NCBI GenBank assembly: GCA_010093815.1
Contig: ML996587.1
DNA: 20,000 bases
Source: Pseudovirgaria hyperparasitica
Taxonomy: Eukaryota
Strand: one strand, 5' to 3'
Under the pieces are notes generated by a model. That model was given only the letters and a program-made list of their open reading frames with translations, did not search any database and was not told the DNA's origin. This document shows positions 1 through 20,000 of this stretch, piece by piece (position 1 is the stretch's first letter; every line of letters begins with the position of its first letter). The translations under genes and the position numbers were made by a program.

Positions 1-2015
1 TTATTAATAGCTAGAAGGTATATATTATTAGCGTATTCTACTATCTCTATATATTATATTCTCTATAGAAGGTCTATAGTAAAGAAGAGGAAGAGAATTA
101 GAGAGATAGTACTTCCTTATAGAATACTATATATTATCTTCTTATATTTACTTTAATATCTAGAGATATATATCTAGGTAATTCTTTTAGTAAGAAAGGA
201 CTATATAAACTTTATAATCTATTCGGGTATACGTCTCTTCTATAGGTTATAGATAAGTCTTATATAGTTTATCTTATTAAATATACTAGCTATATTAAGG
301 GAGAGTAATATTACTATACGTCTCTACTTCTATATAGTCTAAATAACTTTAAGAATATATTAGATAGTAGTAATTAGAGAGCTTCTAGTCTTCGCCTTCT
401 AGTTTACTAGAAGAAGATTATATTCTTATACTATAGTACTTATCTTCTTTATAATTATAGCCTTAAGTATCTTACTAAGATAAAAGAGAAGGGTAATTAG
501 TCTCTATCCTTTTAGAGAGTTAGAGTTCTTCTCTAGCTTTAGAAGTATAATAGTATAGATAGTCTAGAAGCTTTAGGGGTAGTATCTATTCTTAGTATAT
601 ATCTAGAAGATAAGACTAATAAGTAGTAGAGTTATCTATATAGTATATTTAAGGTATCTATTTAGTATTCTATCTAGTCTAGATACTTTATTATTTAGAA
701 GTACTTTAATAGTATTAAGTATATTCTCTTCTATAATCTCTATAGAGATATTAACTATATCTAGATATATAGTATCGTTAATATCTAATAGGTCTACTAG
801 CTCTAGAGAGGGAAATATAACCTTTTAGAGGATCTCTATCTTCTTAGAACTTATAGTATATATTCTTCCCTAGTATATTAGAGAAGATATTAGGAGTAGT
901 AGCGTTAGTATATCCACGCTCTTAGCCTACTTTACTATATACTATAGCTCTATAGCCTATTATATATACTTATTAGTAATTATATACTAGTATTTATATT
1001 ATTTATTATAGAGAGCTCTATTATAAGATTAGATTATCTCTTTCTATTTCTTCTATACCTTAGCTATCTAGATATAGTATACACGTATATATAGTCTCTA
1101 GGCTTTCTATCTACTTTTATATATTTAAGGTATACCTCTTATATCTAGAGACTTATATATTTAGTATAGTATATATTTATCTCTTAAGTCTTAGAAGGCT
1201 TAAAGAAGAACTTATATAGCTCTATCTATAGCCGGGCTATTAGATATATTAACTATAGAGAGATATAGAATTACTAATTCTAGGTCCTCCCTATACTTCT
1301 TCTAGTTAGTATCTTTCTATAGCTATCTCCCCCTTTATTTATTAGATATAGATATATCTATTATAGTCTCTATATACTTATGGTTAGAGTCTATCTATAT
1401 CTTACTAGGGCGGTAGTATTCTACTCTATAGCTTATATATTCTATAGCGAGAGTAAGGTCGAGTATAGATCCCTTCTTATTCTATTTATACTTTCTCTAT
1501 ATAATCTATCTAACTAGTATAAGAAGATATAGAAGGTCTTAGTATCTTATATATAGTTCACTCGCCCTAAGCTCTTCTCTAATAACTATTAGGCCTCTCT
1601 ACTATCTATAGTAGAGGTTAAAGTCGCCTAGAAGGATATATTATTCTAGTACTATAATACTCTCTAGTATAGTATCTAGTATAAGTAATTCTCTCTAGTT
1701 ATAGATATTATAGATATAGAGAGGCCCTATATTTATCTAGAGATATAGTATTATCTAGAGGTTATCTCGGTCTATATAGAACTATTCTAAGAGCGGGATT
1801 AATTTACATATATAGAATAGAACTCTTCTATCTAGGTCTAGGAGGTAGATAGTATAGTATTCTAGGTGTGTCGTTAGTTTATTAGTTTAGTAGTATTTAT
1901 ATAGCTTCTAGATAGCTATTATCGCGGTATCTATCTCTTCTAGAAGTATAGTCTAGTTTTCTTATTTATATTATACGTTTACCTATATAATAATAAGTAT
2001 ATCTTAGCTTCTTAT
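1..2015 (-). pseudogene. LINE ORF2 (apurinic-like endonuclease + reverse transcriptase), RIP-degraded, partial
   Basis: Minus-strand motifs: I*VNV...IIAI*KL (IQVNV/IIAIQEP, ~1990-1905); ILLGDFNLYY (GDFNLHH, ~1637-1608); KG*RLITLL (KGWRPITLL, ~512-486); LLSLNIASIFNKINY (LSLDIAGAFDKVNH, ~308-264); IL*GSTISLILFLFF (GIPQGS, ~125-80); YANN (YADD) at 35-24. The inferred start (2015), GDFN and YANN are in one frame. Confidence 0.9.
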
Positions 2016-3487
2016 TAGATACTAGGGAATACTTAAGTCTATATACTAGTAGTATTAAGGCGTAACTATCTCTATATAGTAGCTACCTTAAGGATACCCT
2101 AGGGTCGCCTAATCTTCCTCTATATAGTATACTATTATATATTAGTTCTACTCTCTTATAGATTAGTAGATATAGTTATAGATAAGGTTAGAGTAGATAG
2201 TAGAGGCCTTATAGCCTAGTATATCTACCTTACTTCTCTCGCCTTTATAGCGTTAATATACTTAGTAACTTATTTATATTTTATATATATTACTAACTAG
2301 AATAGGTATTTTCTATTATAGTTAGAGTACTTAGTAGTTTCTCTATCTTATATACTATTACTCTAGGTCCTATAGGGGTATTTCTAGGTACTATAGCTTT
2401 AATAATACTAGCTATATATAGCCTTTTAAGAGTACCTCTACCTAGTATATCTATACCCTTAATAGTTAAAGTATTAGATTATTATCTATACTTAGTTCTA
2501 TAGTTCTACTATAAGTAGTTCCCCTTTAGCTAAGAAGCCTTTCTATATAATCTTATAGATAAGAGCGGGGTCCCTAAGCTCTACTATTATAGTAGAGTAT
2601 TTTTTTAATTTTATCTTAATTCTCTATATATTTTTCTACTATATCTTTATAATCTTAATTCTAGGGTATTTTTAGTTATTAGATCTCTCTATTTACTTAA
2701 TATTATTATCTCTAATAACTTAGCCCTAGATAGAGATAGTATATATCTATATTAGGTATATATTTATATAGATAGACGCGCTAGAGAAGATATTATTTAT
2801 TATGTTTAGGTTATAGAAGATAGTCTACTAGACTATATTAGTAGTAGTTATTAGTACTATACCTTCTAGAGTAAGTTCAGCTATAACTATATTTAACTAT
2901 ATTTCTTTCTATTTATTAATTTTATTAATAATATTCTTTAGGGACGTCTACTAGACTTATATAAGTACTTTCTTATTCTAGATAGTAACTTATATACTAT
3001 ACGCTCCTCCCTTAGATATCCTTAGTATCTAGACTATCTTAATTATACTATCTATTAGTATAGTAATCTGTATCTATATACTAGAGCGTTTCTTCTAGAT
3101 AAGGCCCTCCTAGATTCTTAGTAGACTAGCTTTAATTTAGTCTAGTCTAGACTCTAGACTTACTTCTAGCGTCTATTTTACTTCTATAGTAAGCTCCTTA
3201 ATATTCTAGACTAGACTCTAGAAGATATTAAGAAGAGTAGTCTCTTCTTTCTTAACCTCTCTCTCTATATATACTATCTAGTATTTAATCTTATCTATAA
3301 GGGTATCTCTAATTGGAGTCCTCTCTATCTTAGTTATCTATAGTATTTTATACTCTTAGTTATTTTCTATTTTTTAGATATTAGATTAGTTATTCTAGAA
3401 TATACTACTATATAGCCGTTTCTACTATACTAATAGTAGAGGTATATCTAGTAGAAGCTAGGGTATATTAGTACCTAAGGCCGCTAT
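2015..3487 (-). pseudogene. LINE ORF1 (gag-like nucleic-acid-binding protein with CCHC zinc knuckles), RIP-degraded
   Basis: The frame from ATA (inferred ATG) at 3487 to TAA at 2017-2015 is 490 codons. It contains I*YFNY*GYRY (IQCFNCQGYGH after reversing RIP) from 2479 and further Y-for-C/H knuckle patterns to ~2375. Confidence 0.75.
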
Positions 3488-3489
3488 AG

Positions 3490-3522
3490 TTTATTAGTTA
3501 AGGGCTACCCTTAACTAATAAA
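3490..3522. repeat. Palindrome/hairpin with 15-bp arms immediately upstream of LINE ORF1
   Basis: tttattagttaaggg-cta-cccttaactaataaa; its 31-bp core recurs at 19578-19608. Confidence 0.9.
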
Positions 3523-3768
3523 AAGAGAGTTAGCGTGTTAGTATTTATTAGTAGTAGTCTATACTTACTACTCTAAAGAGTTTTTAAGTATATATATATA
3601 GTATCTCTATACGTTAGTACTATTATATATTATATACTATATATATATATATGTATTAAAGGTTATTATACTCGGTATACTCTATTAACTAATATATATA
3701 GATTACTATATCGCCCCGAATTAACTAGTTTTAGTCTCTTAGAGTATTAGAAGTTTAATTCTTATATA

Positions 3769-5123
3769 TTATTAATTATATAAGTAATCTTATATAGATC
3801 TATTATTATATAGTAAAGCTTCTTCTTTAGTCTAATACTATAAATATTCTTACTATTTAGTAAAACTTAATCTCTAATATTAAAGATTATAGGTTTTCTA
3901 CCCTTATTATAGTATAATTTACTATAATCTATAGTATCTTATAGTAACTTTATAATACTTCTTTATATTTAGAATAGTTCTATAGTAATTTCTATTACTT
4001 TAATATTAGATTATTCTACTTTAAACTATATTTCTAAGAACTATATATTATAGTTCTAACTAAAGGTTACTTTAAATAAACTTACATAGATTAATATATA
4101 ATAGCTATTATTATATATAAATTCTATAATATAGACTAATCTTATCTAGTTATTCTACTTATAGTTATAATATATATATAAATATACCTTAACTATCTAA
4201 TTCTACTACTCTATCTATCTATCTATTTATAGATAGAATATAGTACTAAGTTTCTACTTAATTCCTAGTATATAGTAGAAATCCTTCTAAAATTTAGAGA
4301 TTATCTATAGACCTCTATCTAAAACTATACTATTTAGTATACTATAGAGCTAAACTATATTATAGAGTAGTATATCTATAAGATCTAGTACTTAGATTAT
4401 CTTTCTTATAGAAATATAGTATAATATCTTTATAAATCTATCTAGAACTATAAGTAAACTATTATAAATATATCTAAGATACTTACTTAGGGGTAGATCT
4501 ATAATAAAATCTATTAATAATTTCTTCTATATCTTCTTTAGTATAGATAATAGCCTTAATTTACTATATAGTAAGTATCTATATACTTTTATATACTAGT
4601 AAACGTTATATATTTTTATATAGTCCTTTATATATCCATAAAGACCTAGCTAGTTATATATTCTTTAGATTAAAATAACTATTCTTATAATACTAAAGTA
4701 TTCTACTAATATATAATTATATTATTCCCTTAAAATATTAATTTATAAGCCGCCTTCTAGTATATATAGTTAGCCTTAGAAGTAGATTATATCTAATTAT
4801 TATTTCTACCTTAATAACTATAGTAGATCTATAGTACTTCCTTTTATACTTATAACTTTCTTTACTAATATATTAGAATTCTAGGTAGATTTAATTAAGT
4901 CTTTAAGGGTTTTCTTAGTTTCTTAGATATTTATTTAGATTACTTAATACCTACTTTAATTCCTACGGAGAATTACTAAAAGTATCCTAGCTTCTAGTAT
5001 TCTATTAGATAACTAGTCTTATAGTATCTATAGTATAGTATAGTCTAGATTATACTAACTATCTATATTATTCTATAATAATTTCTTATAATCTTTATAC
5101 TATAATGGAGAATTAGCTTTATT
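3769..5123 (-). mobile_element. Gypsy chromovirus copy B, distal part (end of RNase H region and integrase), ending at ~3769
   Basis: Reverse complement of copy A 8685-10039 with no net length difference; more heavily RIP-mutated than A. Confidence 0.92.
5119..5123 (+). repeat. Left 5-bp target-site duplication (TTATT) of copy A; right copy at 12508-12512
   Basis: Junctions are gctttatt|tgttagg and tcttaca|ttattctctc. Rejoining them restores the family pol sequence (reverse complement of gagagaataaagc at ~8680-8692). Confidence 0.93.
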
Positions 5124-5351
5124 TGTTAGGACTTAGCCTTAGATAGAACCCGACCTACACGTACCTTAGCTAACAGGGATAGGAGGTGACGTGAAGGGCG
5201 GTAAACAGTCACGTGCTAGATAGATCGGCGTCCCTTTATGTATATACTCTCGGATTCCTACTAAAAGGGTTTGGTAGTAATTCGTTCTATAATAGAATAC
5301 ACCCTATTATTCCATCTAACTATACTACTATCTAATAACCCTATTCTTACA
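5124..5351 (+). repeat. 5' LTR of copy A (228 bp)
   Basis: tgttagg...tcttaca; direct repeat of 12280-12507. About 18 differences by eye, all but one of them transitions. TATA-like tract at ~5237-5246 and CACGTG at 5210-5215. Confidence 0.96.
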
Positions 5352-5353
5352 TT

Positions 5354-5362
5354 CGAATTACT
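5354..5362 (+). promoter_or_regulatory. Putative self-priming primer-binding site (Tf1/sushi type)
   Basis: CGAATTACT, starting 3 nt after the LTR end, is the exact reverse complement of AGTAATTCG (5276-5284), which lies ~30 nt downstream of the TATA-like tract. Confidence 0.7.
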
Positions 5363-5376
5363 CCCTATATAGTACT

Positions 5377-6699
5377 ATAGTTAAGATAGTCTAACTAGAA
5401 CCGAGAAGGTCGACACGATCCACTATAGGGATAAGTAATACTATATTAAATAATAGGGATCCTCTATAATCGGTATTAATCCCGGCCGTTTCTAACCGAG
5501 AAGTGGAAATATTAGACTAAATCACGGAGCTTTTAGACGAAGAAATGGTAGATACGCCGAGTAACTTCTAATAATATAAAGCCGGATAACGAGTCGTGGC
5601 GGAGCCACACGAGGTATCATAATAAACCATTACCGAACTTTAGAAATATATCGTAAATTAGGCTCGAGAGATTCAAACCCTTAAAGAATAGATAGAACGT
5701 GCGAAACTCCTCGCAAAGAGACAAGAACTTAAGGAGTCTCTTAAAGAACTACGCCGAACGATAGTAGGTGGACGACTTCCTATACTAATTCAGGCGGAAT
5801 TAGTTTACCCACCATTAGAGTTACGACAATCTACTATATACCTAGCCGCTTCGTTACCGATTTACCCTACTCCTTCCCTAGATATACTAAAACCTAAAGA
5901 CCCGACTATATTTATAGGGAAGAACTAAAAGGAGTAGAAAGACTAGAAGAGAGACTACGAAAAGTACTTCCTTAATAACTCTCTACTCTTTTCTACTAAA
6001 GTATAACACATTTCGTTCGGAGAACGATACCTAGACTTATAATCCCGCGATCAATAGGATAGATAGAAGGAAGTATAGCTACTATCTACGATAACCTAGG
6101 AATATTTAGCTATATTTATACTAAACACCCTCGGAACGGATAGAGAACGTAAAAGAAAGGTACTATCTAAGTTAAGAAGCGTAGCATAACGACCGAACTA
6201 GACACCTACTTAACTACTATAATACCTCTAAAACCTATAGAATAATATCCCTATACTATAGGAAAATATTCGTATATTCTAGTTTCGCAAAGTACTACTT
6301 CCATTAATCCGCGAAAGACTAGGAATAGTATTATTAAGTTTTAACTATCTACACGAATTAGAGGAGAAAGCTAATAAACACTACCGTATCCTTAAGGAAC
6401 GCGGCTCTCTAGGTAAAACTAACGAACCCTATACGGGTTAGAAACGAGGTCGATCGAATACGTTCGATTAAGAGTAACCTTACCGCGATTAGTACTAGAA
6501 GAGCGTAAATCGAGGTAGAAACGCGTTAAGAGGACACCGAAATAATCGAGGCGGTGCTTCTTAACGCGGAAAAGGATAAGATATAGGCTTAAATATAACG
6601 CCTATCGTAAAATAGTAGGATTATAGCGCACTTCGTTACTATAAGTATAGAGAAATAGAATATATTTCACCTAACTATAAGAATCTAAAAAAAGAATAG
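5377..6699 (+). pseudogene. gag: gag of copy A with C-terminal CX2CX4HX4C knuckle, RIP-degraded
   Basis: One frame from ATA (inferred ATG) at 5377, containing KPKDPTIFIGKN*KE*KD*KRDYEKYF and RYYKYREIEYISPNY (RCYKCGEIGHISPNC) at ~6634-6678; ends AAA AAA GAA TAG. Confidence 0.85.
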
Positions 6700-9600
6700 A
6701 CTAGTACACGAGACCTAACCACGTCCTTAGCTAAATTATATATACTTAGAAGGAGCCGTAGCGCCTTCCGGCGAGTAAAGATCTAATATTACTAAAGATA
6801 TTATTATCTATAGTAAATAGTAATAAAACTATATAGGCTCTTATAGATACTAGTATAGAAGATAACTATATTTCGTTAATTCTTATAAAGACGTATAGAT
6901 TATCGTACGATCTCGGTAAAGTTAGCCGAACTATCGTAGTTAATAGATATGAAGTTAGAACTTTAGGCAAAGCTATAACGAATTACGAAGTTTATAACTC
7001 GAAGATAATAAAATAGTAGATGTCTAATAAATTTATCGTGGCTAATATTAGCTAATAGAATATAATTCTAGGGATGCCTTAGCTTAGACGCCTAAACCCT
7101 ATCCTTGATTTTTAGAAGGAGATATTGACGTTCCGATAATACTATAGTAAATTATACTAGTAAGTCATAACTATTAGTAAGGAGGCATTGAACCTCGCTG
7201 TACGGACCCGATCGTCGCTAATCTATCTTACGTCCTTATCGATCGTTAATAAAGATAAGGATAATAGTAATAATCGGGGCGAAGACACGCTACCCAACGT
7301 ATATTCGTAGTATATGGATGTGTTTTCGGTAGAAGATACGTCACTTCTCCCTAATCACGGGCCGTATAAGCTAAAGATCGAGCTCGAAGAGGGAGTAGAC
7401 GTCCCTTATAGTCTACTTTACCTACTTTCAAGACTAGAACTTAAAGTTCTTTATAAATATATTAAAGAATACCTCGAAAGAGACTAGATACGTTATAGTA
7501 CGTCATCGGCCGGTATACCTATTCTCTTCATAAAGAAGAAAGACGGAAGTTTATATCTATACGTCGACTATTAGGTACTAAATACGGTGACTAAGAAGAA
7601 TCGTTACCTATTACCGCTAGTTAGTAAATCTTTAGACTAATTAACGAAGGTAAAGTACTTTATAAAGCTAGATTTATAAGATATATATTACCGGCTTTAA
7701 ATTCGTCGCGGAGATAAGTGGAAAACCGCATTTCGGACTAGATATAGTTATTTTAAGTATACTATTATACTATTCGGGCTAATAAATGTGCTAGGAGCGT
7801 TTTAAGGATATATTAATACTATACTCGTAGGATTACTTAACGTGATTTACGTAGTTTATCTCAATGATATACTAATTTACTCCGATAGTATATAGGATTA
7901 TAAAGGACACGTGAAATCGGTGCTAAATCGTCTAAGGTAGTATAAACTCTACGTAAAATTATCTAAATGCGAGTTTCACTAATAAGAAGTTGGGTTTCTC
8001 GGCTTTATTATAATATATGGCGGCCTAAAAATGGAGCCGGAGCGTGTAAAGACTATCATAGAATAGCTAGAACCTACTACTATACGTTAAATTAGAATAT
8101 TTATAGGTTTCGTGAACTATTATCGTAAATTTATTATAGACTTCTTACGAATTACGGCGCTACTTAATAAACTTATAGAGAATGGCGGTAAAATTCCTAT
8201 AGATAGGCGAGTATAGCGTAAAGCTAAGTCGGTCGAGATATAGTTAACGCCGGAAGCGCGAGATGCGTTCCGATCATTAAAGAATTACTTTATAACTACG
8301 CCGATTCTTAGGTATTTCGATTCTAAGAAGTATATTCGGGTCGAAACTAACGCGTTAGAATTCGTAATTACTAGAATCATTAGTTAACCGTATAAAGATG
8401 CGAAAGACAAGGTATAATAGCACCCGGTCGCTTTCTTTTCCCGTAAAATGGCGGATATAGAGACGCGTTATAATACGCACGACTAGGAACTACTTATAAT
8501 CGTCGAGAGTTTTAAGTAATAGCGATATTATTTAGAAGGCTCCGTATATTAGATCGAATTATTATTAGATTATATAAATCTACGTTACTTTATATCGACT
8601 AAGGTCCTTAATCACTAATAAGTACGTTAGGCTAAGTAGATATTAATATTTAACTTTAACATCTTATATAAAGCTAGAAGAGAGAATAAAGCTAATCCTC
8701 TATCGCAGCATAAAGATTATAAGAAATCGTTATAGAATAACGTAGATAGTTAGTGTAAGTTAGACTATACTATACTTTAGATACTATAAGACTAGTTATC
8801 TAATAGAATACTAGAAGCTAGGACACTTTCGGCGATTCTCCGCGGGAATTAGAACGGGTATTAAGTAATCTAAATAAACGTCTAAGAAACTAAGAAAACC
8901 CTTAAAGACTTAATTAAATCTACCTAGAATTCCGATATATTAGTAAAGAAAGTCATAAGTATAAAAGGAAGCGCTATAGATCCGCCGTGGTTATTAAGGT
9001 AGAAATAATAATTAGACGCGATCTACTTCTAAGGCCGACTCTACGTGCCGGAAGGCGGCTTACGAATTAATGTTTTAAGAGAATAGCACGATTACGCGTT
9101 AGTAGGGTACTTTAGCATTATAAGGACGGTTAATTTAATCCGAAGGATATACGACTAGCCGGGTCTTTATAAATATATAAAAGACTACGTAAAAATGTAT
9201 AACGTTTACTAGTATACGAAAGTATATAGATACTTACCATATAGCGAATTAAGGCCATTACCTATACTAAAGGAGGCATAGAAGGAATTATTAATGGATT
9301 TCATTATAGATCTACCCCTAAGTAAGTATTCTAGATACATTTATAATAGTTTACTCGTAGTTCTAGATAGATTTATAAAGATATTATACTATATCCCTAT
9401 AAGGAAGACGATCTAAGCACCGAATCTTATAGATATACTACTCTATAACGTAGTCCGGCTCTACGGTATACTAAACGGTATAGTTTCGGATAGAGATCCG
9501 TAGATAACGTCTAAATTTTAGAAGGATTTCTACTATACGCTAGGAATTAAGCGGAAACTTAGTACTATATTCCATCTATAAATAGATAGATAGACGGAGC

Positions 9601-10457
9601 GGTAGAATCAGATAGTCGAGGCGTATTTACGCGTATATTATAACTATAAGTAGGATAACTAGGTAAGGTTAGTCTATGTCGCGGAATTCGCGTATAATAA
9701 TAGCCGATATACGTTAACCCACGTGAGTCTATTCGAAGTAAACTTCGGTTAGAACCATAATATATAGTTCTTAGAGACTTAGTTTAAAGTAGAATAACCT
9801 AACGTTAAAGTAATAGAAATTACTATAGAACTATTCTAAACGTAAAGAAGCGTTATAAAGTTACTATAAGATACTATAAATTATAGTAAATCGTATTATA
9901 ATAAGGGTAGAAAACCTATAATCTTTAATGTTAGGGATAAAGTTTTACTAAATAGTAAGAATATTCGTAGTATTAGGCTAAAGAAGAAGCTTAACTATAT
10001 AATAATAGGTCTATATAAGATTACTCGTGTAATTAATAACCAGGCGTACGAGTTATAACTCTCTCCTACGTTAAAGATATATAATATATTCTATATTACG
10101 CTTCTCGAGCCATTTCATGCCTTATTATTACCGGATCGTTCCGAATAGATACTATATAAAGTAGTTACGTAAGAAGGTATAGATATCTACGAAGTTAAGT
10201 AGATACTTAGCTAGTAACGTGCCGAAGATAGTACGTAGCTATATAAGATTCGTTAGAAAGGATATAATTCTAATAAAGATACTTAGGAACCTATAATAAA
10301 CATTAGTAAAGTAGCGATATTAGTATATAAGTAGTAATTAGTAAAGGAAGCCGCGGAATCGCAGAGAATTATACTAAAGTACAGCGATTTAACGTTTTTT
10401 AGTATAGTTTAGCGCTAAGGACGGCCGCCTAAAAGGAAGAAGGTGAAAGAGATATAG
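6690..10457 (+). pseudogene. pol: pol of copy A: protease, reverse transcriptase, RNase H, integrase, chromodomain; RIP-degraded
   Basis: Frame is -1 relative to gag. Motifs: ALIDTS 6837; KWKTAFRTR ~7717; VVYLNDILIYS 7851; VETNAL 8340; H..H/C..C zinc region 9081-9210; MDFIIDLP ~9294; IVSDRD 9480; FHL*IDR*TER*NQ ~9570; IGLYKI (GPY) ~10005; YEVK*IL...YKIR*KGY...T*EP (chromodomain) 10188-10293. The end position is approximate. Confidence 0.95.
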
Positions 10458-10813
10458 ATCTTTAAAACATTCTAAGGAATTAAGGAACTTCCTTAGAAAG
10501 TTCGAACTTAGAACTTTAAAAAATTTAACTAAAAAAGAGACTTAGAAAAATGATTTACTAAGAGAAATAGACATTAAAAATCGGTGCCGATTGGTATAGA
10601 TCGGTATAGATTACTAAAGAGATTAAAGAAGTTATTATTAAAGAAAGATGAAATTAAGAAAGCTAGAAGAAAATATAAAGATCTATATAGATCTATGTAA
10701 ACTCACACTAATCTATCTAGAAGAAGCAAGATCGCTTTAAAATTAAAACCGAAAAACCAAAAACGCTAGATAAAAGAGATATATTAGTACCGATTGGTAT
10801 AGATCTAAACTAT

Positions 10814-11708
10814 TTATATCGGAGTAGGAGTAGAAGTACTAATTACCGCGATAGTTACATCTAATTCCTTTTACTAGTTCTTATTTACCATAGTATAGAG
10901 CTTTATAATATAAGTCTCTAGCCTTTTATTCCGATACTAGAAATTCTATATAGCGCGCCTTATAGCTATAAACTCCTCTATAGAAACATATAGAGCGGCG
11001 GGACCTAGGACGGAGAGGGACGGACCGGCGCGGGCACGCTAAGAATTATATAAATCAGCGAAAAGATTTAACGATTGGTATAGAACCATATACCTTTAGT
11101 ATAGAAACCTCTAGATTAGAGCCATCTTCCCTAAATTTATAGCTCTTTAGCATGCGCGAGGAAGGAACCTTAGCCTTTTTACTAGAACCTTTTCTAGGAA
11201 TTCTAATATCGCCGGTATATAGAAAGAAGTCTAAAGTAGTAGAGATTTTAGCACTATTATAGAGATTAATATATATTAGTAAGAATCTATAACGATTTAA
11301 GAAAAACGATATTACCTAGTAATCGCGGTAATAATAGCTATAGTAGATTCCAATAAATCCTTATAGATCTTATTAGAATTATACTCCTAGGCGTAACCCT
11401 TACCTTAGATATATAGCTTATAGAAAGCCTTCTCTAAGGCGTTGCGATTAGTAGTACTACGCTTCTTATTAGTAGGGGTTACTAGAGGCCTAGTAGTAAT
11501 CTATACTAATATAAGTAAATCTACGTAAAGTTCTTCGAACTTACTTAAATATCTATAAGTAATAACGCTTCTTAGTCATGTAAGTACCGTATATTATAGA
11601 TTTAGTACTACTATAAGTAATATACGACGGAAAGCGACAACCATAATAATATATAGCTAGATTATTAGAGCCCGGCCTAGGTCGGGGTAGATTAATAGCT
11701 TTCGACAT
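10814..11708 (-). pseudogene. Antisense accessory gene inside copy A: 4 exons (11708-11545, 11489-11316, 11253-11094, 11038-10814), ~240 aa, putative Cys-rich (Zn2Cys6-like) N-terminus
   Basis: ATG at 11708. Three GT..AG introns of 55, 62 and 55 nt with fungal donor and branch-like signals, in mutually consistent phases. Spliced length is 723 nt. The 7 internal stops are all TAA/TAG. Same structure in copy C. Confidence 0.72.
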
Positions 11709-12263
11709 ATTAGTAATATATATAAGATAGAGATTATTTAAAGGCGCCTATTTCCGTACTAATTACTTTAGAGCGTCGAGATTTCGGGAAACTATATTAT
11801 AATTATTACTAATTTATGCGGATTATTACGAATTATACTATTACTAGCTAAGGACGGTATAAAAATTAGTAAAATGCGTAAATCGCACTAAATTATAGTA
11901 AATCTATATAAATCTATGTCTATAAGGATCGGGTAATATACCTAATAATCTAAAAAACTCTATAAAGAGTTAAGAAGTTTTTTAAAGAAAGGAATATTTC
12001 TAAGAAAAGATTTTAATATAGGTAGCATCTAGGCTTACCTAATTAGATCACGTGATACGCTAGGCCTAATTAGGCAATCTTACCTATGTAAGAAGTTAGA
12101 ATAGATAAAATCTAGTTTATTAGGAAAACGCTTATATAAATCTTAGATTAGCGAATATTAGTAAATATCTAAGACGAAGTATAGAGAACGACTAAGGTCT
12201 TACGAGACTTAGAATAGGGATATAGAGATAGGTAACGACCTAGGTCGCTAAGGGTAGCTTCCT

Positions 12264-12279
12264 AGAGGGAAGGGATAAT
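12264..12279 (+). promoter_or_regulatory. Polypurine tract of copy A
   Basis: agagggaaggga-taat directly before the 3' LTR; mirrored at 17159-17174 in copy C. Confidence 0.88.
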
Positions 12280-12507
12280 TATTAGAACTTAGCCTTAGGT
12301 AGAACCCGACCTATATATACCTTAGCTAATAGAGTTAGGAGGTGACGTAAAGGGCGGTAAATAGTCACGTGCTAGATAGATCGGCGTCCCTTTATATATA
12401 TACTCTCGGATTCCTACTAAAAGGGTTCGGTAGTAATTCGTTCTATGATAGAATACACCCTATTGTTCTATCTAACTACACTACTATCCAATAACCCTAT
12501 TCTTACA
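12280..12507 (+). repeat. 3' LTR of copy A (228 bp)
   Basis: tattagaac...tcttaca (initial TG mutated to TA); direct repeat of 5124-5351. Confidence 0.96.
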
Positions 12508-15500
12508 TTATTCTCTCTTCTAGCTTTATATAAGATTTTAAAGTTGAATATTAATATCTACTTAGCCTAATATACTTATTAGTAATTAAGGACCTTAGTT
12601 AATATAAAGTAATATAGATTTATATAATCTAATAATAATTTAATCTAATATATAGAACCTTCTAAATAATATTACTATTACTTAAAACTCTTAATAATTA
12701 TAAGTAGTTTCTAGTTATATATATTATAATATATCTCTATATCTACTATTTTATAGAAAAATAAGACGACTAGATACTATTATATCTTATTTTTTATATC
12801 TTTATACGGTTAACTAATAATTCTAGTAATTATAAATTCTAATATATTAGTTTCGACCTAAATATACTTCTTAGAATTAAAATACCTAAGAATTAGTATA
12901 GTTATAAAGTAATTCTTTAATAATTAGAATATATCTTATACTTCTAGTATTAACTATATCTTAACTAACTTAGCTTTATACTATACTTATCTATCTATAG
13001 AGATTTTACTACTATTCTCTATAAGTTTATTAAGTAGTACTATAATTTATAAGAGGTCTATAATAAATTTATAATAATAGTTTATAAAATCTATAAATAT
13101 TCTAATTTAATATATAGTAGTAGATTGTAGCTATTCTATAATAGTCTTTATACGCTCTAGCTCTATTTTTTAACCGCTATATATTATAATAAAGCTAAGA
13201 AACCTAACTTCTTATTAGTAGAACTTATATTTAAATAACTTTATATAGAGCTTATACTATCTTAGATAATTTAGTACTAATTTTATATATTCTTTATAAT
13301 TCTATATACTATTAGAGTAAATTAGTATATTATTAAGATAGACTATATAGATTATATTAAGTAATTCTATAAGTATAGTATTAATATATTCTTAAAATAC
13401 TTCTAGTATATTTATTAGTCTAAACAGTATAATAGTATACTTAAAATAACTATATCTAGTCTAAAATATAGTTTTCTACTTATCTCTATAATAAATTTAA
13501 AGCTAGTAATATATATCTTATAAATCTAGCTTTATAAAGTACTTTACCTTTATTAATTAGTCTAAAGATTTACTAACTAGTAGTAATAGATAATAATTCT
13601 TCTTAGTTACTATATTTAGTATCTAATAGTTAATATATAGATAGAAACTTCTATCTTTCTTCTTTATAAAGAGAATAGATATACTAGCTAATAATATACT
13701 ATAATATATCTAGTCTCTTCTAAGGTATTCTTTAATATATTTAGAAAGAACTTTAAGTTCTAGTCTTAAAAGTAGATAAAGTAGACTATAAGAAATATCT
13801 ACTCCCTCTTTAAGCTTAATCTTTAGCTTATATAGTCTATAATTAGAGAGAAGTAATATATCTTCTACTAAAAATATATCTATATACTATAAATATATAT
13901 TAGATAGCGTGTCTTTATTCTAATTATTACTATTATTCTTATCTTTATTAAGAATTAATAGAGATATAAGATAGATTAGTAATAATTAAGTCTATATAGT
14001 AAGGTTCTATACCTTCTTACTAATAACTATAACTTACTAGTATAATTTACTATAATATTAGTAGAATATTAAGATCTTCTTCTAAACATTAAGAATTAGA
14101 TTTTAATATTTAAGCTAAGGTATTTCTAGAATTATATTCTATTAGCTAATATTAGCTATAATAAACTTATTAGATATCTACTATTTTATTATCTTTAAGT
14201 TATAAACTTTATAATTTATTATAGCTTTATCTAAAGTTCTAACTTTATATCTATTAACTATAATAGTTTAGCTAACTTTACTAAGATTATATAATAATCT
14301 ATACTTCTTTATAAGAATTAATAAAATATAGTTATCTTCTATACTAGTATCTATAAGAGCCTATATAGTTTTATTACTATTTACTATAGATAATAATATC
14401 TTTAGTAATATTAGATCTTTACTTACTAGAAGGTACTATAGCTCCTTCTAAGTATATATAATTTAGCTAAGAATATAGTTAGATCTTATATACTAGTCTA
14501 TTCTTTTTTTAGATTCTTATAGTTAGGTAAAATATATTCTATTTCTCTATACTTATAGTAATAAAGTATACTATAATCCTACTATCTTATAATAGATATT
14601 ATATTTAAGTCTATATCTTATTCCTTTCTATATTAAGAAGTACCGCCTTAATTATTTTAGTATTCTCTTAATATATTTCTACTCTAATTTATACTCTTCT
14701 AGTACTAATTATAGTAAGGTTACTCTTAATTAAATATATTTAATTAACCTTATTTCTAACCTATATAGAGTTTATTAGTTTTATCTAGAGAGCTATATTC
14801 CTTAAGAATATAGTAGTATTTATTAGCTTTCTTCTCTAATTTATATAGATAATTAAAACTTAATAATACTATTTCTAGTCTTTCGTGGATTAATAGGAGT
14901 AGTACTTTATAAAACTAGAATATATAAATATTTTTCTATAATATAGGGATATTATTCTATAGGTTTTAAAGGTATTATAGTAGTTAAGTAAATATCTAGT
15001 TCGGTTATTATACTACGCTTCTTAACTTAGATAGTACCTTTCTTTTATATTCTCTATCTATTCTAAGGCTATTTAGTATAAATATAGCTAAATATTTCTA
15101 GGTTATTATAGATAGTAGCTATATTTCCTTCTATCTATTCTATTAATTATAGAATTATAAGTCTAGGTATTATTCTCTAAATAAAATATATTATACTTTA
15201 GTAGAAAAGAGTAGAGAGTTATTAAGGAAGTACTTTTTATAGTCTCTCTTCTAGTCTTTCTACTCCTTTTAGTTCTTCTCTATAAATATAATTAGATCTT
15301 TAGATTTTAGTATATCTAGAGAAGGAGTAGAGTAAATTAGTAATAAAGCGGCCGGGAGTATAGTAGATTATTATAACTCTAGTAGTAGATAAACTAATTC
15401 TACCTAAATTAGTATAGGAAGTTATCCGTCTACTATTATTCGGTATAGTTCTTTAAGAGACTCTTTAAGTTCTTATCTCTTTATAAGAAGTTTTATATAT

Positions 15501-16073
15501 TTAGTCTATTCTTTAAGAATCTAAATCTCTTAGACTTAATTAGTAATATACTTCTATAGTTTAGTAATAGTTTATTATAACACCTTATATAGCTCCACTA
15601 CAACTTATTATCTAACTTCATATTATTAGAAGTTACTTAGTATATCTACTATTTCTTTATTAGAAAGCTCTGTGATTTAGTCTAATATCTCTACTTCTTA
15701 GTTAGAAATAGCTAGATTTAATACTAATTATAGAGGATCCCTATTATTTAATATAGTATTACTTATCTCTATAGTAGATTATATTAACCTTCTTAGTTCT
15801 AGTTAAACTATCTTAACTATAGTACTATATAGAGAGTAATTTAAATATAAGAATAGGGTTATTAGATAGTAGTATAGTTAGATAGAATAATAGAGTATAT
15901 TCTATTATAGAATAAATTACTACTAAACTCTTTTAGTAGAAATCTAAGAGTATATATATAAAGAGACGCCGATCTATCTAGTATATAACCATTTACTACC
16001 CTTTATACTACCTTCTAACTATATTAGCTAAGGTATATATAGATCGGGTTATATATAAGACTAAGTCCTAACA
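12508..16073 (-). mobile_element. Gypsy chromovirus copy B, proximal part (5' LTR, gag 15820-14498, PR, RT, RNase H)
   Basis: Reverse complement of copy A 5124-8689 with the same length; continues at 5123 on the far side of copy A. Confidence 0.94.
15846..16073 (-). repeat. 5' LTR of copy B (228 bp)
   Basis: tataagaataggg...agtcctaaca; adjacent to the degraded PBS/leader at 15832-15845; outer flank ttagc. Confidence 0.93.
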
Positions 16074-16930
16074 TTAGCTAGCTAACGTTATATTAGAAGA
16101 GTTAAGTACCGCTATTCTATCTCCTCTATCTATTAATATTAATATACTAGCGATTATAATCTAATCGCCTTATAAATTAATATATAATAAGAGTTTAAGC
16201 GAATATATAAAAGTCTAATATTATATACTATTTAGGGCTAGAGAGGAAGCGTCTACCGGCGTAGTAGTTATTAAGGTAATAGTAGAAGTCTATATATAAC
16301 TAGATATACTAAGTCCGCCTTCTTCTTATATAGTTCTATTACTAGATAATATTACTAGTTTTAATATTATAGAAGAGGAGTTTATAGATACGAACCTATG
16401 AATGTTAGTATAATATTAGCTTAATAGTATATATTATAGTATAAGGTAAGTTATATTTAGACTATAGTTAGATATATATACTAGTATACTAACGGATATA
16501 TAGTATCTCTACTATAAATAGAATAGATAAGATATAGCTAGTAATATCTTACTATCTAGAAGAGATAGTTACTATAGAATTTAGAAGATAGACTCGGTAT
16601 CTATAGTATTAGTATATTAGATAGTTAAACCTTTATACAATACTATTTACTTATATCTATATTTATCTAAGCTCTAATTTAATAGCCTTCTATAATATAC
16701 TATATACTTAGTTAGTAAGCTACTAGACTTATATAATAGTAGTATACTACTCTACTTTATATACTACTTAAGCTACTATTACTTTAGTCTATGTTAATCT
16801 TAGCTTTCTTTAGTTATCTCTATATTATAAAAGAAAACTTCTATAAATCTTTTCTCTACTTATCTTAGTTTTTAAATCTAAATCTTACCTTCTATACTTT
16901 ATTCTATATTAATTATAACTATATATAAAT
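16074..16930. other. Unassigned RIP-mutated spacer with one intron-like segment on + (16446-16503)
   Basis: No similarity seen to the other elements in the window; gtaagt...actaac...tag spans 58 nt. Confidence 0.4.
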
Positions 16931-17158
16931 TGTAAGAATAGGGTTATTAGATAGTAGTATAGTTAGATAGAATAATAGAGTATATTCTTTTATAGAACGA
17001 ATTACTACTAAACCCTTTTAGTAGAAATCTAAGAGTATATATATAAAAAGACGCCGATCTATCTAGTATATAACTATTTACCGCCCTTTACGCCACCTTC
17101 TAACTATATTAGCTAAGGTATATATAGATTAGGTTATACCTAAGACTAAGTTCTAATA
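16931..17158 (-). repeat. 3' LTR of copy C (228 bp)
   Basis: tgtaagaataggg...agttctaata followed by the PPT complement attatccccttcc; outer flank taaat. Confidence 0.93.
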
Positions 17159-17730
17159 ATTATCCCCTTCCTTTAGGAAGCTACCCTTAGTAACCTAGAT
17201 TATTATCTATCTCTATATTCTAATTCTAAGTCTTATAAGACCTTAGTCGTTCTCTATACTTCGTCTTAGATATTTACTAATATTTATTAATCTAAGATTT
17301 ATATAAGCGTTTTCCTAATAAACTAGATTTTATCTATCTTAAATTCTTATATAGGTAAGATTACCTAATTAGGCCTAGCGTATCATATAATATAATTAGA
17401 TAAGTCTAGATACTATCTATATTAAAATCTTTTCTTAGAAATATTCCTTTCTTTAAAAAACTTCTTAACTCTTTATAGAGTTTTTTAGATTATTAGATAT
17501 ATTACCCGATTCTTATAGATATAGATTTATATAGATTTACTATAATTTACTATAATTTATATAGCTTACTAACTTTTATAGTATACTTAGCTAATAATAA
17601 TAATAATCTATAAGAATCTATATCAATTAGTAGTAATTATAATATAGTTTCCCGAAATCTTAATACTCTAAAGTAATTAGTATAGAAATAGGCGCCTTTA
17701 AATAATCCCTATCTTATATACGTTACTAAT

Positions 17731-18625
17731 ATATTAAAAGCTATTAATCTACTCTAACCTAGGCCGGGCTCTAATAATCTAGCTATATATTATTATAGTT
17801 ATCACTTTCCATCGTATATTACTTACGGTAGTACTAAATCTATAATATACAGTACTTATATAACTAAGAAGCGTTATTACTTATAGGTATTTAAGTAAGT
17901 TCGAAGAACTTTATATAGATTTACTTATATTAGTATAGATTACTACTAGGCCTCTAGTAACCTCTACTAATAAGAAGTATAGTACTACTAATTATAACGC
18001 CTTAGAGAAGACTTTCTATAAGCTATATATCTAAGGTAAAGATTATATCTTAGAGTACGATTCTAATATAATCTATAAGAATTTATTAGAATCTACTATA
18101 GCTATTATTACCGTAATTATTAGGTAATATTATTTTTCTTAAATTATTATAGATTCTTACTAATATATATTAATCTCTATAATAGTACTAAAATCTCTAC
18201 TACTTTAGACTTCTTTCTATATACTAGTAATATTAAAATTTCTAGAAAAGGTTCTAGTAAAAAGGCTAAGGTTCCTTTCTTATATATACTAAAAGACTGT
18301 AAATTTAGAGAAGATAGCTCTAATCTAGAAGTTTCTATACTAAAGGTATATAGTTCTATACTAATTATTAAATCTTTTTACTAATTTATATAATTCTTAG
18401 CGTACCCACGCTAGTCTATCTCTCTCTATTTTAGGTTCTACCGCTCTATAGATTTCTATAGAGGAGTTTATAGCTATAAGGCGCGCTATATAGAATTTAT
18501 AGCGTTAGAATAAAAGGCTAGAGACTTATATTATAAAGCTCTATACTATACTAAATAAGAACTAGCGGAAGGAATTAGATATAACTATTACAGTAATTAG
18601 TACTTCTACTTCTACTCCGACTTAA
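17731..18625 (+). pseudogene. Second copy of the antisense intron-containing accessory gene (exons 17731-17894, 17950-18123, 18186-18345, 18401-18625)
   Basis: Exon and intron lengths are identical to copy A and all six GT/AG dinucleotides are retained; the start codon is mutated to ATA. Confidence 0.7.
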
Positions 18626-18921
18626 TTAGTTTAGATCTATACTAATTAGTACTAATATATTTCTTTTATCTAGTGTTTTTAGTTTTCGGTTTTAATTTTA
18701 AAGTAATCTTACTTCTTCTAGATAGATTAGTATAAATTTATATAGATCTATATAGATCTTTATATTTTCTTTTAGCTTTCTTAATTTTATCTTTCTTTAA
18801 TAATAACTTCTTTAATCTCTTTAGTAATCTATACCAATCTATACTAATTAGTACCGATTTTTAATGTCTATTTCTCTTAGTAAATTATTTTTCTAAGTCT
18901 CTTTTTTAGTTAAATTTTTTA

Positions 18922-18999
18922 AAGTTCTAACTTTAAACTTTCTAAGGAAGTTCTAAGTTTAAACTTTCTAAGGGAGTTCTAAGTTCGAACTTTCTAAGG
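18922..18999. repeat. Tandem repeat, 3 x 26 bp (aagttctaagttcgaactttctaagg)
   Basis: Units start at 18922, 18948 and 18974; copy A has only one unit (~10491-10516, reverse complement). Confidence 0.88.
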
Positions 19000-19233
19000 A
19001 AGTTCCTTAATTCCTTAGAATAAATGTTTTAAAGATCTATATCTCTTTTACCTTCTTTCTTTTAGACGGCCGTTCTTAGCGCTAAACTATACTAAAAAAC
19101 ATTAAATCGCCGTACTTTAGTATAATTCTCTATAATTCTATAGCTTCCTTTACTAATCGCTACTTATATACTAATATTACTACTTTACTAATATTTATTA
19201 TAGGTTTCTAAGTATCTTTATTAGGATTATATC

Positions 19234-19842
19234 ATCTAAGCCCGAACGGGCGCCATGGGACTCCTATACTACATCCATAAGAGAGGCGTTCCCGACACCT
19301 CCCTATAGTATAAGGCATACGGCCGGAGAGATATAATACGCTACTATCTAGCTATATGCCCTAATCTCCATATATAATAGTAATAGCTTATCTACGTTAT
19401 GAAGACTTTAGATATCGTATAATAGCTTAATAAGTACCCTAAGGACGTCTCCCGATAGATACTTATATATCTACTACTCCTCTAGTACTAGTGGACCTGG
19501 AAATATATACCGGAAGAGACCCGGTATATGCCGGTAGTAACCCGATATATACCGGAAGAACCCTAGGAGAACCCCGATTATTAGTTAAGGGCAGCCCTTA
19601 ACTAATAACCTCCGCACCTACACGTGCTACCTAAGGGTAAAATAACGGTAATATAGGCTATAGGCTAATAGGCGTACCCTATAGCTATATACCTAAGATA
19701 AAATAGAGGTTTAACGAGATATAGTTATAGACATAAGGAAGTTTTTCCCTATAGGGTTTCTTCTTATATAGTGGCTTAGACTAGAGGAGGCATAGGCCTA
19801 TAGAGTACTACTCTACCTAGTTATATAATATTATTATTATTA
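19234..19842 (+). mobile_element. 5'-truncated LINE (ORF2 C-terminus, 3' UTR, (TTA)n tail) inserted in the chromodomain of copy C
   Basis: 16-bp TSD ttattaggattatat(c/t) at 19218-19233 and 19843-19858. The frame from 19234 reads I*ARTGAMGLLYYIHKRGVPDTSL*YKAYGRRDIIRYYLAICP (QxRTG...CxxC...H...C of LINE ORF2). The tail (tta)4 is at 19831-19842. Confidence 0.9.
19578..19608. repeat. 31-bp palindrome at the ORF2 end / 3' UTR of the truncated LINE
   Basis: ttattagttaagggc-a-gcccttaactaataa; 30/31 identical to the reverse complement of 3491-3521. Confidence 0.9.
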
Positions 19843-20000
19843 TTATTAGGATTATATTCTTTCTAATAAATTTTATATAGCTATATACTATCTTCGGCGT
19901 ATTACTAGCTAAGTATCTACTTAACTTTATAGATATCTATATCTTCTTACGTAACTACTTTATATAGTATCTATTTAGAATAATCTAGTAATAATAAGGT

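Follow-up and report, generated by a model that had tools for sequence, protein, structure and literature searches.

Boty-like retrotransposons reportedly carry an antisense gene, brtn, whose description is credited to Zhao et al. in 2011. The reference lists of three papers give the source as Zhao et al. 2011, Virology 417:248-252 (PMC7264820, PMC8365987, PMC4227169). According to these papers, an extra open reading frame (ORF) is oriented antisense and situated between pol and the 3' long terminal repeat (LTR) in Botrytis cinerea and Sclerotinia sclerotiorum (PMC7264820), brtn is present in BcGypsy1 (PMC8365987), and Boty-like elements have a gag-pol with a CHROMO domain, plus brtn-106 (PMC4227169). 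Beyond brtn, the literature searched held no further descriptions of fungal antisense genes. Here we analyze the window, by which we mean a whole stretch of 20,000 nt from Pseudovirgaria hyperparasitica (contig ML996587.1, assembly GCA_010093815.1). It contains an LTR retrotransposon, which we call element B, and a first-pass annotation had proposed a gene with three introns on the strand opposite its gag-pol, between pol and the 3' LTR. That annotation had also supposed that no such gene was among the described features of fungal chromoviruses, which overlooked brtn, published in 2011 from the same place in its element.

Antisense extra ORFs are also described in plants, namely, Grande gene23, RIRE2, Retand, and PvRetro13 (reviewed in PMC7264820). 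The same source reports that the antisense ORF of Grande was shown to have its own promoter and that its protein is nuclear. Coiled coils are reported in the antisense ORF proteins of some Tat lineages (PMC4408406). The plant ORFs are like the arrangement in the window in being antisense and between pol and the 3' LTR, and in that PMC7264820 describes them as having no database homologues. However, their hosts are plants, they belong mostly to non-chromovirus Tat/Retand lineages, and their sequences are unrelated.

The closest described system is the fungal one, as far as position and strand, which we compared from the descriptions of brtn, can tell. Both have a fungal host, a Ty3/gypsy element with a chromodomain (in element B, a chromodomain-like stretch), and an extra antisense gene (in element B, a probable one) between pol and the 3' LTR. 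They differ in that brtn is from Leotiomycetes, whereas the pol relatives found here are mainly from Dothideomycetes, and in that the copies in the window are dead. The region in the window also has the position that defines the aORF-3R class, between the pol stop and the polypurine tract (PPT) or 3' LTR.

Our reading, to which we assign a probability of roughly 0.6, is that the frame in the window is a member of this known kind that was killed by repeat-induced point mutation (RIP), an antisense accessory gene like brtn and like a hypothetical protein of Stemphylium lycopersici described below (P0121). The architecture is present in the window, and an intact, conserved, and spliced gene is present in relatives. 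We infer that the window frame is the same gene as the one in the relatives, and its own promoter and function likewise. The exact exon model is unproven.

The antisense gene model in element B

Element B is a complete LTR retrotransposon of 7,384 nt (5124-12507). RIP-type stops occupy 120 of the 1,701 codons of its gag-pol frame. Pfam matches to RVT_1 (2.4e-19), RT_RNaseH_2 (1.5e-17), Integrase_H2C2 (7.9e-07), and SH3_Tf2-1 (4.7e-10) all fall in that one frame, and the order reverse transcriptase, RNase H, integrase is that of the gag-pol of a Ty3/gypsy chromovirus. Pfam reported no chromodomain (PF00385) in the RIPped gag-pol at E <= 0.01. A chromodomain-like stretch near the C-terminus (YEVK.IL...LYKIR.KGY...DT.EP) was recognized by eye only, and PF00385 is present in most of the pol relatives. 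These relatives, mainly from Dothideomycetes and other fungi, are chromovirus polyproteins with about 32-44% identity. A GRPPKRKK motif immediately precedes the pol stop, and a similar motif is at the pol ends of L001 and L031, two relatives described below. Element B and copy C, an inverted partial copy farther along the window, are RIP-inactivated Ty3/gypsy retrotransposon copies of the chromovirus type, in what is probably a Dothideomycete-like ascomycete.

Relatives of the RIPped pol were still found at E values down to 1e-239. Thus, RIP alone does not wipe out the homology of a conserved protein, although the homology of a short, fast-evolving accessory protein could have been lost in this way. 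Reversal of RIP changes (deRIP) in pol, using two copies, B and the inverted copy D, removed only 1 of the 120 stops. It was no help in choosing relatives because copy D is more mutated than B.

The pol end near 10457 and the PPT at 12264 were both recovered where they had been claimed, with about 1.8 kb between them. The proposed gene spans 895 nt of this spacer (10814-11708). Its minus-strand exons and GT..AG introns are present exactly as they had been laid out, with the lengths in Table 1, and they join in phase into 241 codons. The proposal of a frame of about 240 codons holds to that extent, but the frame is not open, because it has 7 internal stops in B. The equal layout claimed for copy C was also found: the alignment runs without an indel over the whole gene, and all boundary bases are kept. 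Across the two copies, codon 9 is CGA/TAA, codon 202 is CGG/TAG, and codon 222 is TAA/CGG. This bears out the suggestion that some of the stops are mutational, because an arginine codon in one copy stands against a stop in the other.

All internal stops of B and C are TAA or TAG and can be undone by RIP reversal. TGA, the only stop beyond such reversal, is absent from the model, but about one is expected by chance, so this observation has no power. Reversal of one RIP change converts the intron 3 donor from GTATAT to GTATGT. We also compared the letters of other genomic copies (run X1 contigs), using 40 of 167 rows, and few positions were correctable. Among these rows, the position of the ATG of B is ATA in most copies, a RIP-type change. 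Run X1 gave 10,353 contig pieces that matched the window. The contigs of the four runs compared showed no splice joints, and those of one organism (organism B) did not cover 10765-11700, which says nothing for or against expression.

Table 1. Positions of features in the window and of a recurring 8-mer in two relatives
Feature	Position	Strand	Remarks
gag-pol	5355-10457	+	single frame; terminal TAG 10455-10457
Proposed exon 1	11545-11708	-	164 nt; ATG 11708-11706; genomic frame 0; in 64-codon open stretch 11747-11556
Proposed intron 1	11490-11544	-	55 nt; GTAAGT..CTAG; phase 2; branch site not clear
Proposed exon 2	11316-11489	-	174 nt; genomic frame 1; 2 internal stops in B, one (TAA) also in C
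Proposed intron 2	11254-11315	-	62 nt; weak donor GTAATA, branch-like CTAAT, ATAG; phase 2
Proposed exon 3	11094-11253	-	160 nt; without stops in B and C; within 86-codon open stretch 11315-11058
Proposed intron 3	11039-11093	-	55 nt; GTATAT, branch-like CTGAT, TTAG; phase 0
Proposed exon 4	10814-11038	-	225 nt; 4 internal stops in B; least convincing part; true stop uncertain
Antisense gene, presumed promoter plus 5' leader	11709-12263	-	inferred from position
Antisense gene region in inverted copy C	17731-18625	+	exon and intron lengths as in B; 9 internal stops; ATA replaces ATG
5' LTR of element B	5124-5351	+	228 nt; TG..ACA
3' LTR of element B	12280-12507	+	228 nt; TG..ACA
Target-site duplication TTATT (5 bp)	5119-5123 and 12508-12512		flanks element B
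Polypurine tract AGAGGGAAGGGA	12264-12275	+	
Copy D, inverted, same family	16073..12508 and 5123..3769		heavier mutation load than B; 19-25% GC
Copy C, inverted, partial	19999..16931		sole second copy of the element's 3' region
CCRTTHTR sites in L001	177, 514, 603, 6319, 6710, 6961	-	
CCRTTHTR sites in L031	3459, 3883, 3893, 4177, 4763, 4973, 5169	-	

A motif of 12-13 nt, TCTATACCAATCG, has three copies on the minus strand of the spacer, at 10599, 10802, and 11083, with counterparts in copy C at 18355, 18636, and 18838. One copy lies within proposed intron 3, and two lie downstream of the proposed stop.

An intact, spliced antisense gene in relatives

Through pol and an alignment of eight relatives, we fetched 93 loci (viral contigs gave 15 and metagenome contigs 78). 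The un-RIPped relatives with an ORF and splice sites that had been suggested as a check on the gene model were among them: L001 and L031 carry a spliced antisense gene at the same spot. Both are undamaged, with 52-53% GC, and at 6,994 nt (L001, unit) and about 7,063 nt (L031), they are near element B in size. Each antisense gene has four exons and three introns and is located between the pol stop and the LTR, spanning about 943 nt in L001 and 1,070 nt in L031. The introns are 39, 65, and 60 nt in L001 and 49 or 79, 72, and 58 nt in L031. Their donors are GTATGT, GTAGGT, or GTAAGT, their acceptors are YAG, and CTGAC branch sites are present in 4 of the 6.

The encoded proteins, of 259 residues in L001 and 296 (or 286) in L031, are homologous, with 40% identity in exon 1 (E 9e-10) and 27% identity between the full-length proteins (E 5e-20), and none of 300 shuffles of the full proteins reached the observed similarity (p = 0/300). 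All three introns are at matching places, as judged by eye from exon translations and tblastn alignments, and their phases are 0-2-0 in both. Six cysteines are common to the two first exons (CxRC ... GC.FP ... C.RCx6C), and the C-terminus is basic and coiled-coil-like.

A profile of the two first exons led to P0121, a 286-residue hypothetical protein of S. lycopersici (KNG50449.1, RAQ98632.1, and RAR00529.1). P0121 is identical to L031 in exon 1 and has the same gene model, except that the intron 1 acceptor is 30 nt later. Therefore, its annotation is an independent call of the L031-type antisense gene. It had no significant match in Pfam (best E 0.27) or among PDB sequences (best E 0.55), and in Atlas it had a poor model and only leads below 0.9. 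A word search with L001 exon 1 among longer proteins found none, and a scan of viral contigs with the exon 1 alignment returned only L001 itself.

Antisense ORFs behind pol were also found in L019, L024, L038, L064/L070/L079/L080, and L082/L084/L089. They start about 0.8-1.5 kb and end 0-850 nt from the pol stop, and by sequence they fall into two families or more (among them L064/L070/L079/L080 and L082/L084/L089). Altogether, at least 12 of the 93 fetched loci have an antisense ORF close behind pol, as picked by eye among the candidates listed by a crude scan that also put out many plainly spurious frames. Several of the additional ORFs have an E/K/R-rich stretch and the pattern CX2CX6-8CX10-11CX2CX6C. 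Those of L064, L079, L038, and L089 have the spacing of the Zn(2)-Cys(6) cluster PF00172 (CX2CX6CX10-11CX2CX6C), which a pattern search confirmed for L064 and L079 only. The only Pfam match to PF00172 was in L064 and was below threshold (E 0.029, 14.9 bits versus a cutoff of 21); there was none in L001, L031/P0121, or the window. The cysteine spacing is a pattern resemblance to a zinc cluster and not membership. This suggests that Botrytis, the one published case, may not stand alone and that antisense accessory genes may be a common feature of fungal chromoviruses.

An 8-mer, CCRTTHTR (for example, GCCATTCTGAC), recurs on the minus strand of L001 and L031 (Table 1), within the introns of the antisense gene and on either side of it. 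Where it is in introns, it overlaps the CTGAC branch site.

Readings of the frame in the window

The window model shares its place, strand, and number of introns (three) with L001, L031, and P0121, and the phases of introns 2 and 3 (2 and 0) with L001 and L031. The distance from the pol stop to the antisense stop is 357 nt in the window, compared with about 300 and about 325 nt in L001 and L031, respectively. In size, 241 codons compare with 259-296 in L001 and L031, and exon 1 is about 30 codons shorter than in P0121, L031, and L001. The six cysteines conserved in those three proteins are not visible in the window, and the comparison with the relatives' gene is one of architecture rather than of protein similarity.

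Several results weigh against the reading of the window frame as a dead gene of this kind. Five of the internal stops (7 in B and 9 in C) are common to both copies, and a two-copy deRIP with B and C leaves 6 stops in the frame. Codon 183 is TAG in C and in nearly all of the other genomic copies compared (the 40 of 167 rows), from which B is set apart by a transversion. A clear branch site is lacking in intron 1, GTAATA is a poor donor for intron 2, and intron 1 is in phase 2 in the window, whereas it is in phase 0 in L001 and L031. Pfam found no family in the four exon pieces. An HMMER search confined to the frame-0 translation of exons 1 and 3, with stops replaced by X, found no match among 1.84 billion representative proteins. 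The window model had no tblastn match in the 93 fetched loci. Against the L001 and L031 proteins, there was no significant similarity by tblastn or by literal and RIP-aware Smith-Waterman alignment with shuffles (best p 0.03-0.08, most >0.1). When the whole window was scanned with the relatives' proteins, the 8 best-scoring places did not include proposed exon 1. At the site of the six cysteines conserved in the relatives, B has just one. Finally, the pol of element B is only about 32-36% identical to that of these relatives, so they are not close kin of element B.

The RIP-aware alignment, in which each TA was allowed to be a former CA, TG, or CG, was too permissive, and the most TA-rich parts of the window scored above the gene region. 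It is possible that tyrosines in exon 1 of the window are former cysteines, changed from TGY to TAY by RIP; a change of this type was seen once between B and C, and the idea had no statistical support. YGCRFP in B and YGCVFP in L031 make a six-residue match with E about 10, which is anecdotal. In the window as in L001 and L031, an L-[H/Y]-x-G motif follows the junction of intron 2 by 11 residues. We rejected it as evidence because it was noticed post hoc and exon 3 similarity is not significant.

The main rival is that the spacer is a non-coding 3' untranslated or regulatory region that never held a gene, in which chance frames were bridged by GT..AG pairs. We consider this unlikely. GT..AG pairs are abundant in TA-rich RIPped DNA, and the gene model arose by picking frames and then bridging them. 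A dynamic program that allowed at most 7 stops and at most 3 GT..AG introns threaded 319 codons on the minus strand of the spacer and 279 on the plus strand, and with cheap introns it threaded the whole 20 kb on both strands. In 300 order-3 Markov simulations, the fraction that matched the observed minus-strand openness was 0.027-0.08, depending on the measure (p of about 0.03-0.08). These results, the 5 stops common to B and C, and the lack of detectable homology for the frame are all in favor of a spacer without a gene, and they weigh against ours.

On the other side, stops make up 3.3% of the gene model (8 of 241 codons), which is below half of the 7.1% in the true pol frame; other frames have 7.4-11%. 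The 86-codon open stretch is the longest listed over 5000-12600 on both strands, and 86 codons is the maximum in C as well. Of the six listed stretches of at least 60 codons over the same range, two are the longest in the spacer that lack stops, and both of these are on the minus strand. Both the 86- and the 64-codon stretches are kept in B and C, and their strand and order agree with those of the exons in the intact L001 and L031 gene. Furthermore, both of the ~7-kb units in which the spacer was worked out in detail, L001 and L031, carry an antisense gene there. The openness measures themselves did not separate genuine pol windows from their own antisense strands. Because the true pol frame is barely distinguishable from wrong frames, openness is undecisive in both directions.

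It had also been expected that a real gene would have exons more conserved than its introns. Between B and C, the outcome was the reverse, with 12.9% divergence in exons and 7.6% in introns. The higher exon divergence arose because mutable C and G remained there, and for dead RIPped copies, this comparison is uninformative.

Another explanation is that the spacer gave rise to an antisense non-coding RNA that regulated the element (it might, for instance, have paired with genomic RNA and so fed RNA silencing) and that the open stretches are incidental. In its favor, the window frame has no detectable protein homology, and antisense non-coding transcripts and control of LTR elements mediated by double-stranded RNA are discussed in PMC7264820. 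However, the conservation of L001 and L031 at the protein level (E 5e-20) and their canonical introns, with matching places and phases, would not be expected of a non-coding RNA, and we regard this explanation as improbable. Regulation at the RNA level could nevertheless act beside a protein. Very improbable is a former sense-strand ORF (env-like or other) in the spacer: a 92-codon plus-strand open stretch does appear at 10984-11259 after the two-copy deRIP, but open frames opposite real coding exons are common, the spacer of B has no plus-strand open stretch of at least 60 codons, its plus-strand frames have 48-73 stops in 606 codons, and the conserved coding signal of the relatives is on the antisense strand.

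If the window frame is a dead antisense accessory gene, as we think is probable, then the 1.8-kb spacer between pol and the PPT would hold the decayed remains of a gene on the strand opposite gag-pol. In the active family, a promoter of its own next to the 3' LTR would have driven transcription of this gene in the direction of pol. Three short introns would have been spliced from the antisense mRNA, and translation would have given a protein of about 240-290 residues. Introns that are antisense to the genomic RNA are not recognized there and are copied faithfully in each retrotransposition, and therefore, they are kept in every copy. To judge from the intact relatives, the protein may have had an N-terminal cysteine cluster, presumably zinc binding, and a basic, coiled-coil-like C-terminus. 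Its likely role, by the same analogy, would be to bind nucleic acid in the nucleus and to regulate how the element itself is expressed or silenced. The first-pass annotation had called this a separately transcribed third gene. An antisense, spliced gene is real in L001 and L031, and the window frame is a candidate for such a gene.

More tentatively, many fungal chromoviruses, in ascomycetes and probably basidiomycetes, might have a conserved, intron-bearing antisense accessory gene by the 3' LTR, whose small protein product combines a cysteine cluster with a coiled coil. On that view, which we hold with some reserve, brtn, P0121, and the wreck in the window would be one widespread and essentially unstudied class. 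If this is true, the class protein is possibly a zinc-cluster-like regulator that controls transcription of the element or counters host silencing, and its introns survive retrotransposition only because they lie backward in the genomic RNA. The antisense accessory genes of both plants and fungi could encode regulators, nuclear factors, or anti-silencing proteins. They are easily overlooked or misannotated as host genes. The gene is dead in the window and thus without direct effect on the host. Its value is comparative, in that a RIPped element is tied to an architecture found intact in relatives, where it is annotated merely as "hypothetical protein." Of greater interest is the gene of those relatives, which is intact, conserved, and unstudied.

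Nested copies around element B

The window is AT rich, with 18-37% GC. Positions 3769-20000 consist of copies of one LTR retrotransposon family decayed by RIP-type transitions, and positions 1-3768 had no match to any part of that family. Searches of the spacer between pol and the PPT with Rfam and a tandem repeat finder gave no match. Element B is nested within copy D (3769-16073 of the window), so that two copies with strongly unequal RIP loads adjoin each other.

Over the 3' region aligned between B and C (10261-12275 and 17163-19233, respectively), 183 of the 199 differences scored are transitions, 103 of them in a CpG context and 40 in CpA/TpG. The excess of CpG might mean either that CpA sites are saturated in both copies or that the mutation process was CpG biased. 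Many of the B/C differences are paired CG to TA changes. Copy C also has about 600 nt (19234-19842) without a counterpart in B, between parts that match B at 10261 and 10276. This may be an insertion.

Part of the LTR (12318-12413) matched a 2,840-nt contig from another sample under the same species label (runs X4 and X5), with a depth of about 2,600. The match covers 96 nt with 13 differences, and the contig runs on into GC-rich, seemingly un-RIPped sequence. This contig may represent either a relative of the LTR that escaped mutation or host sequence.

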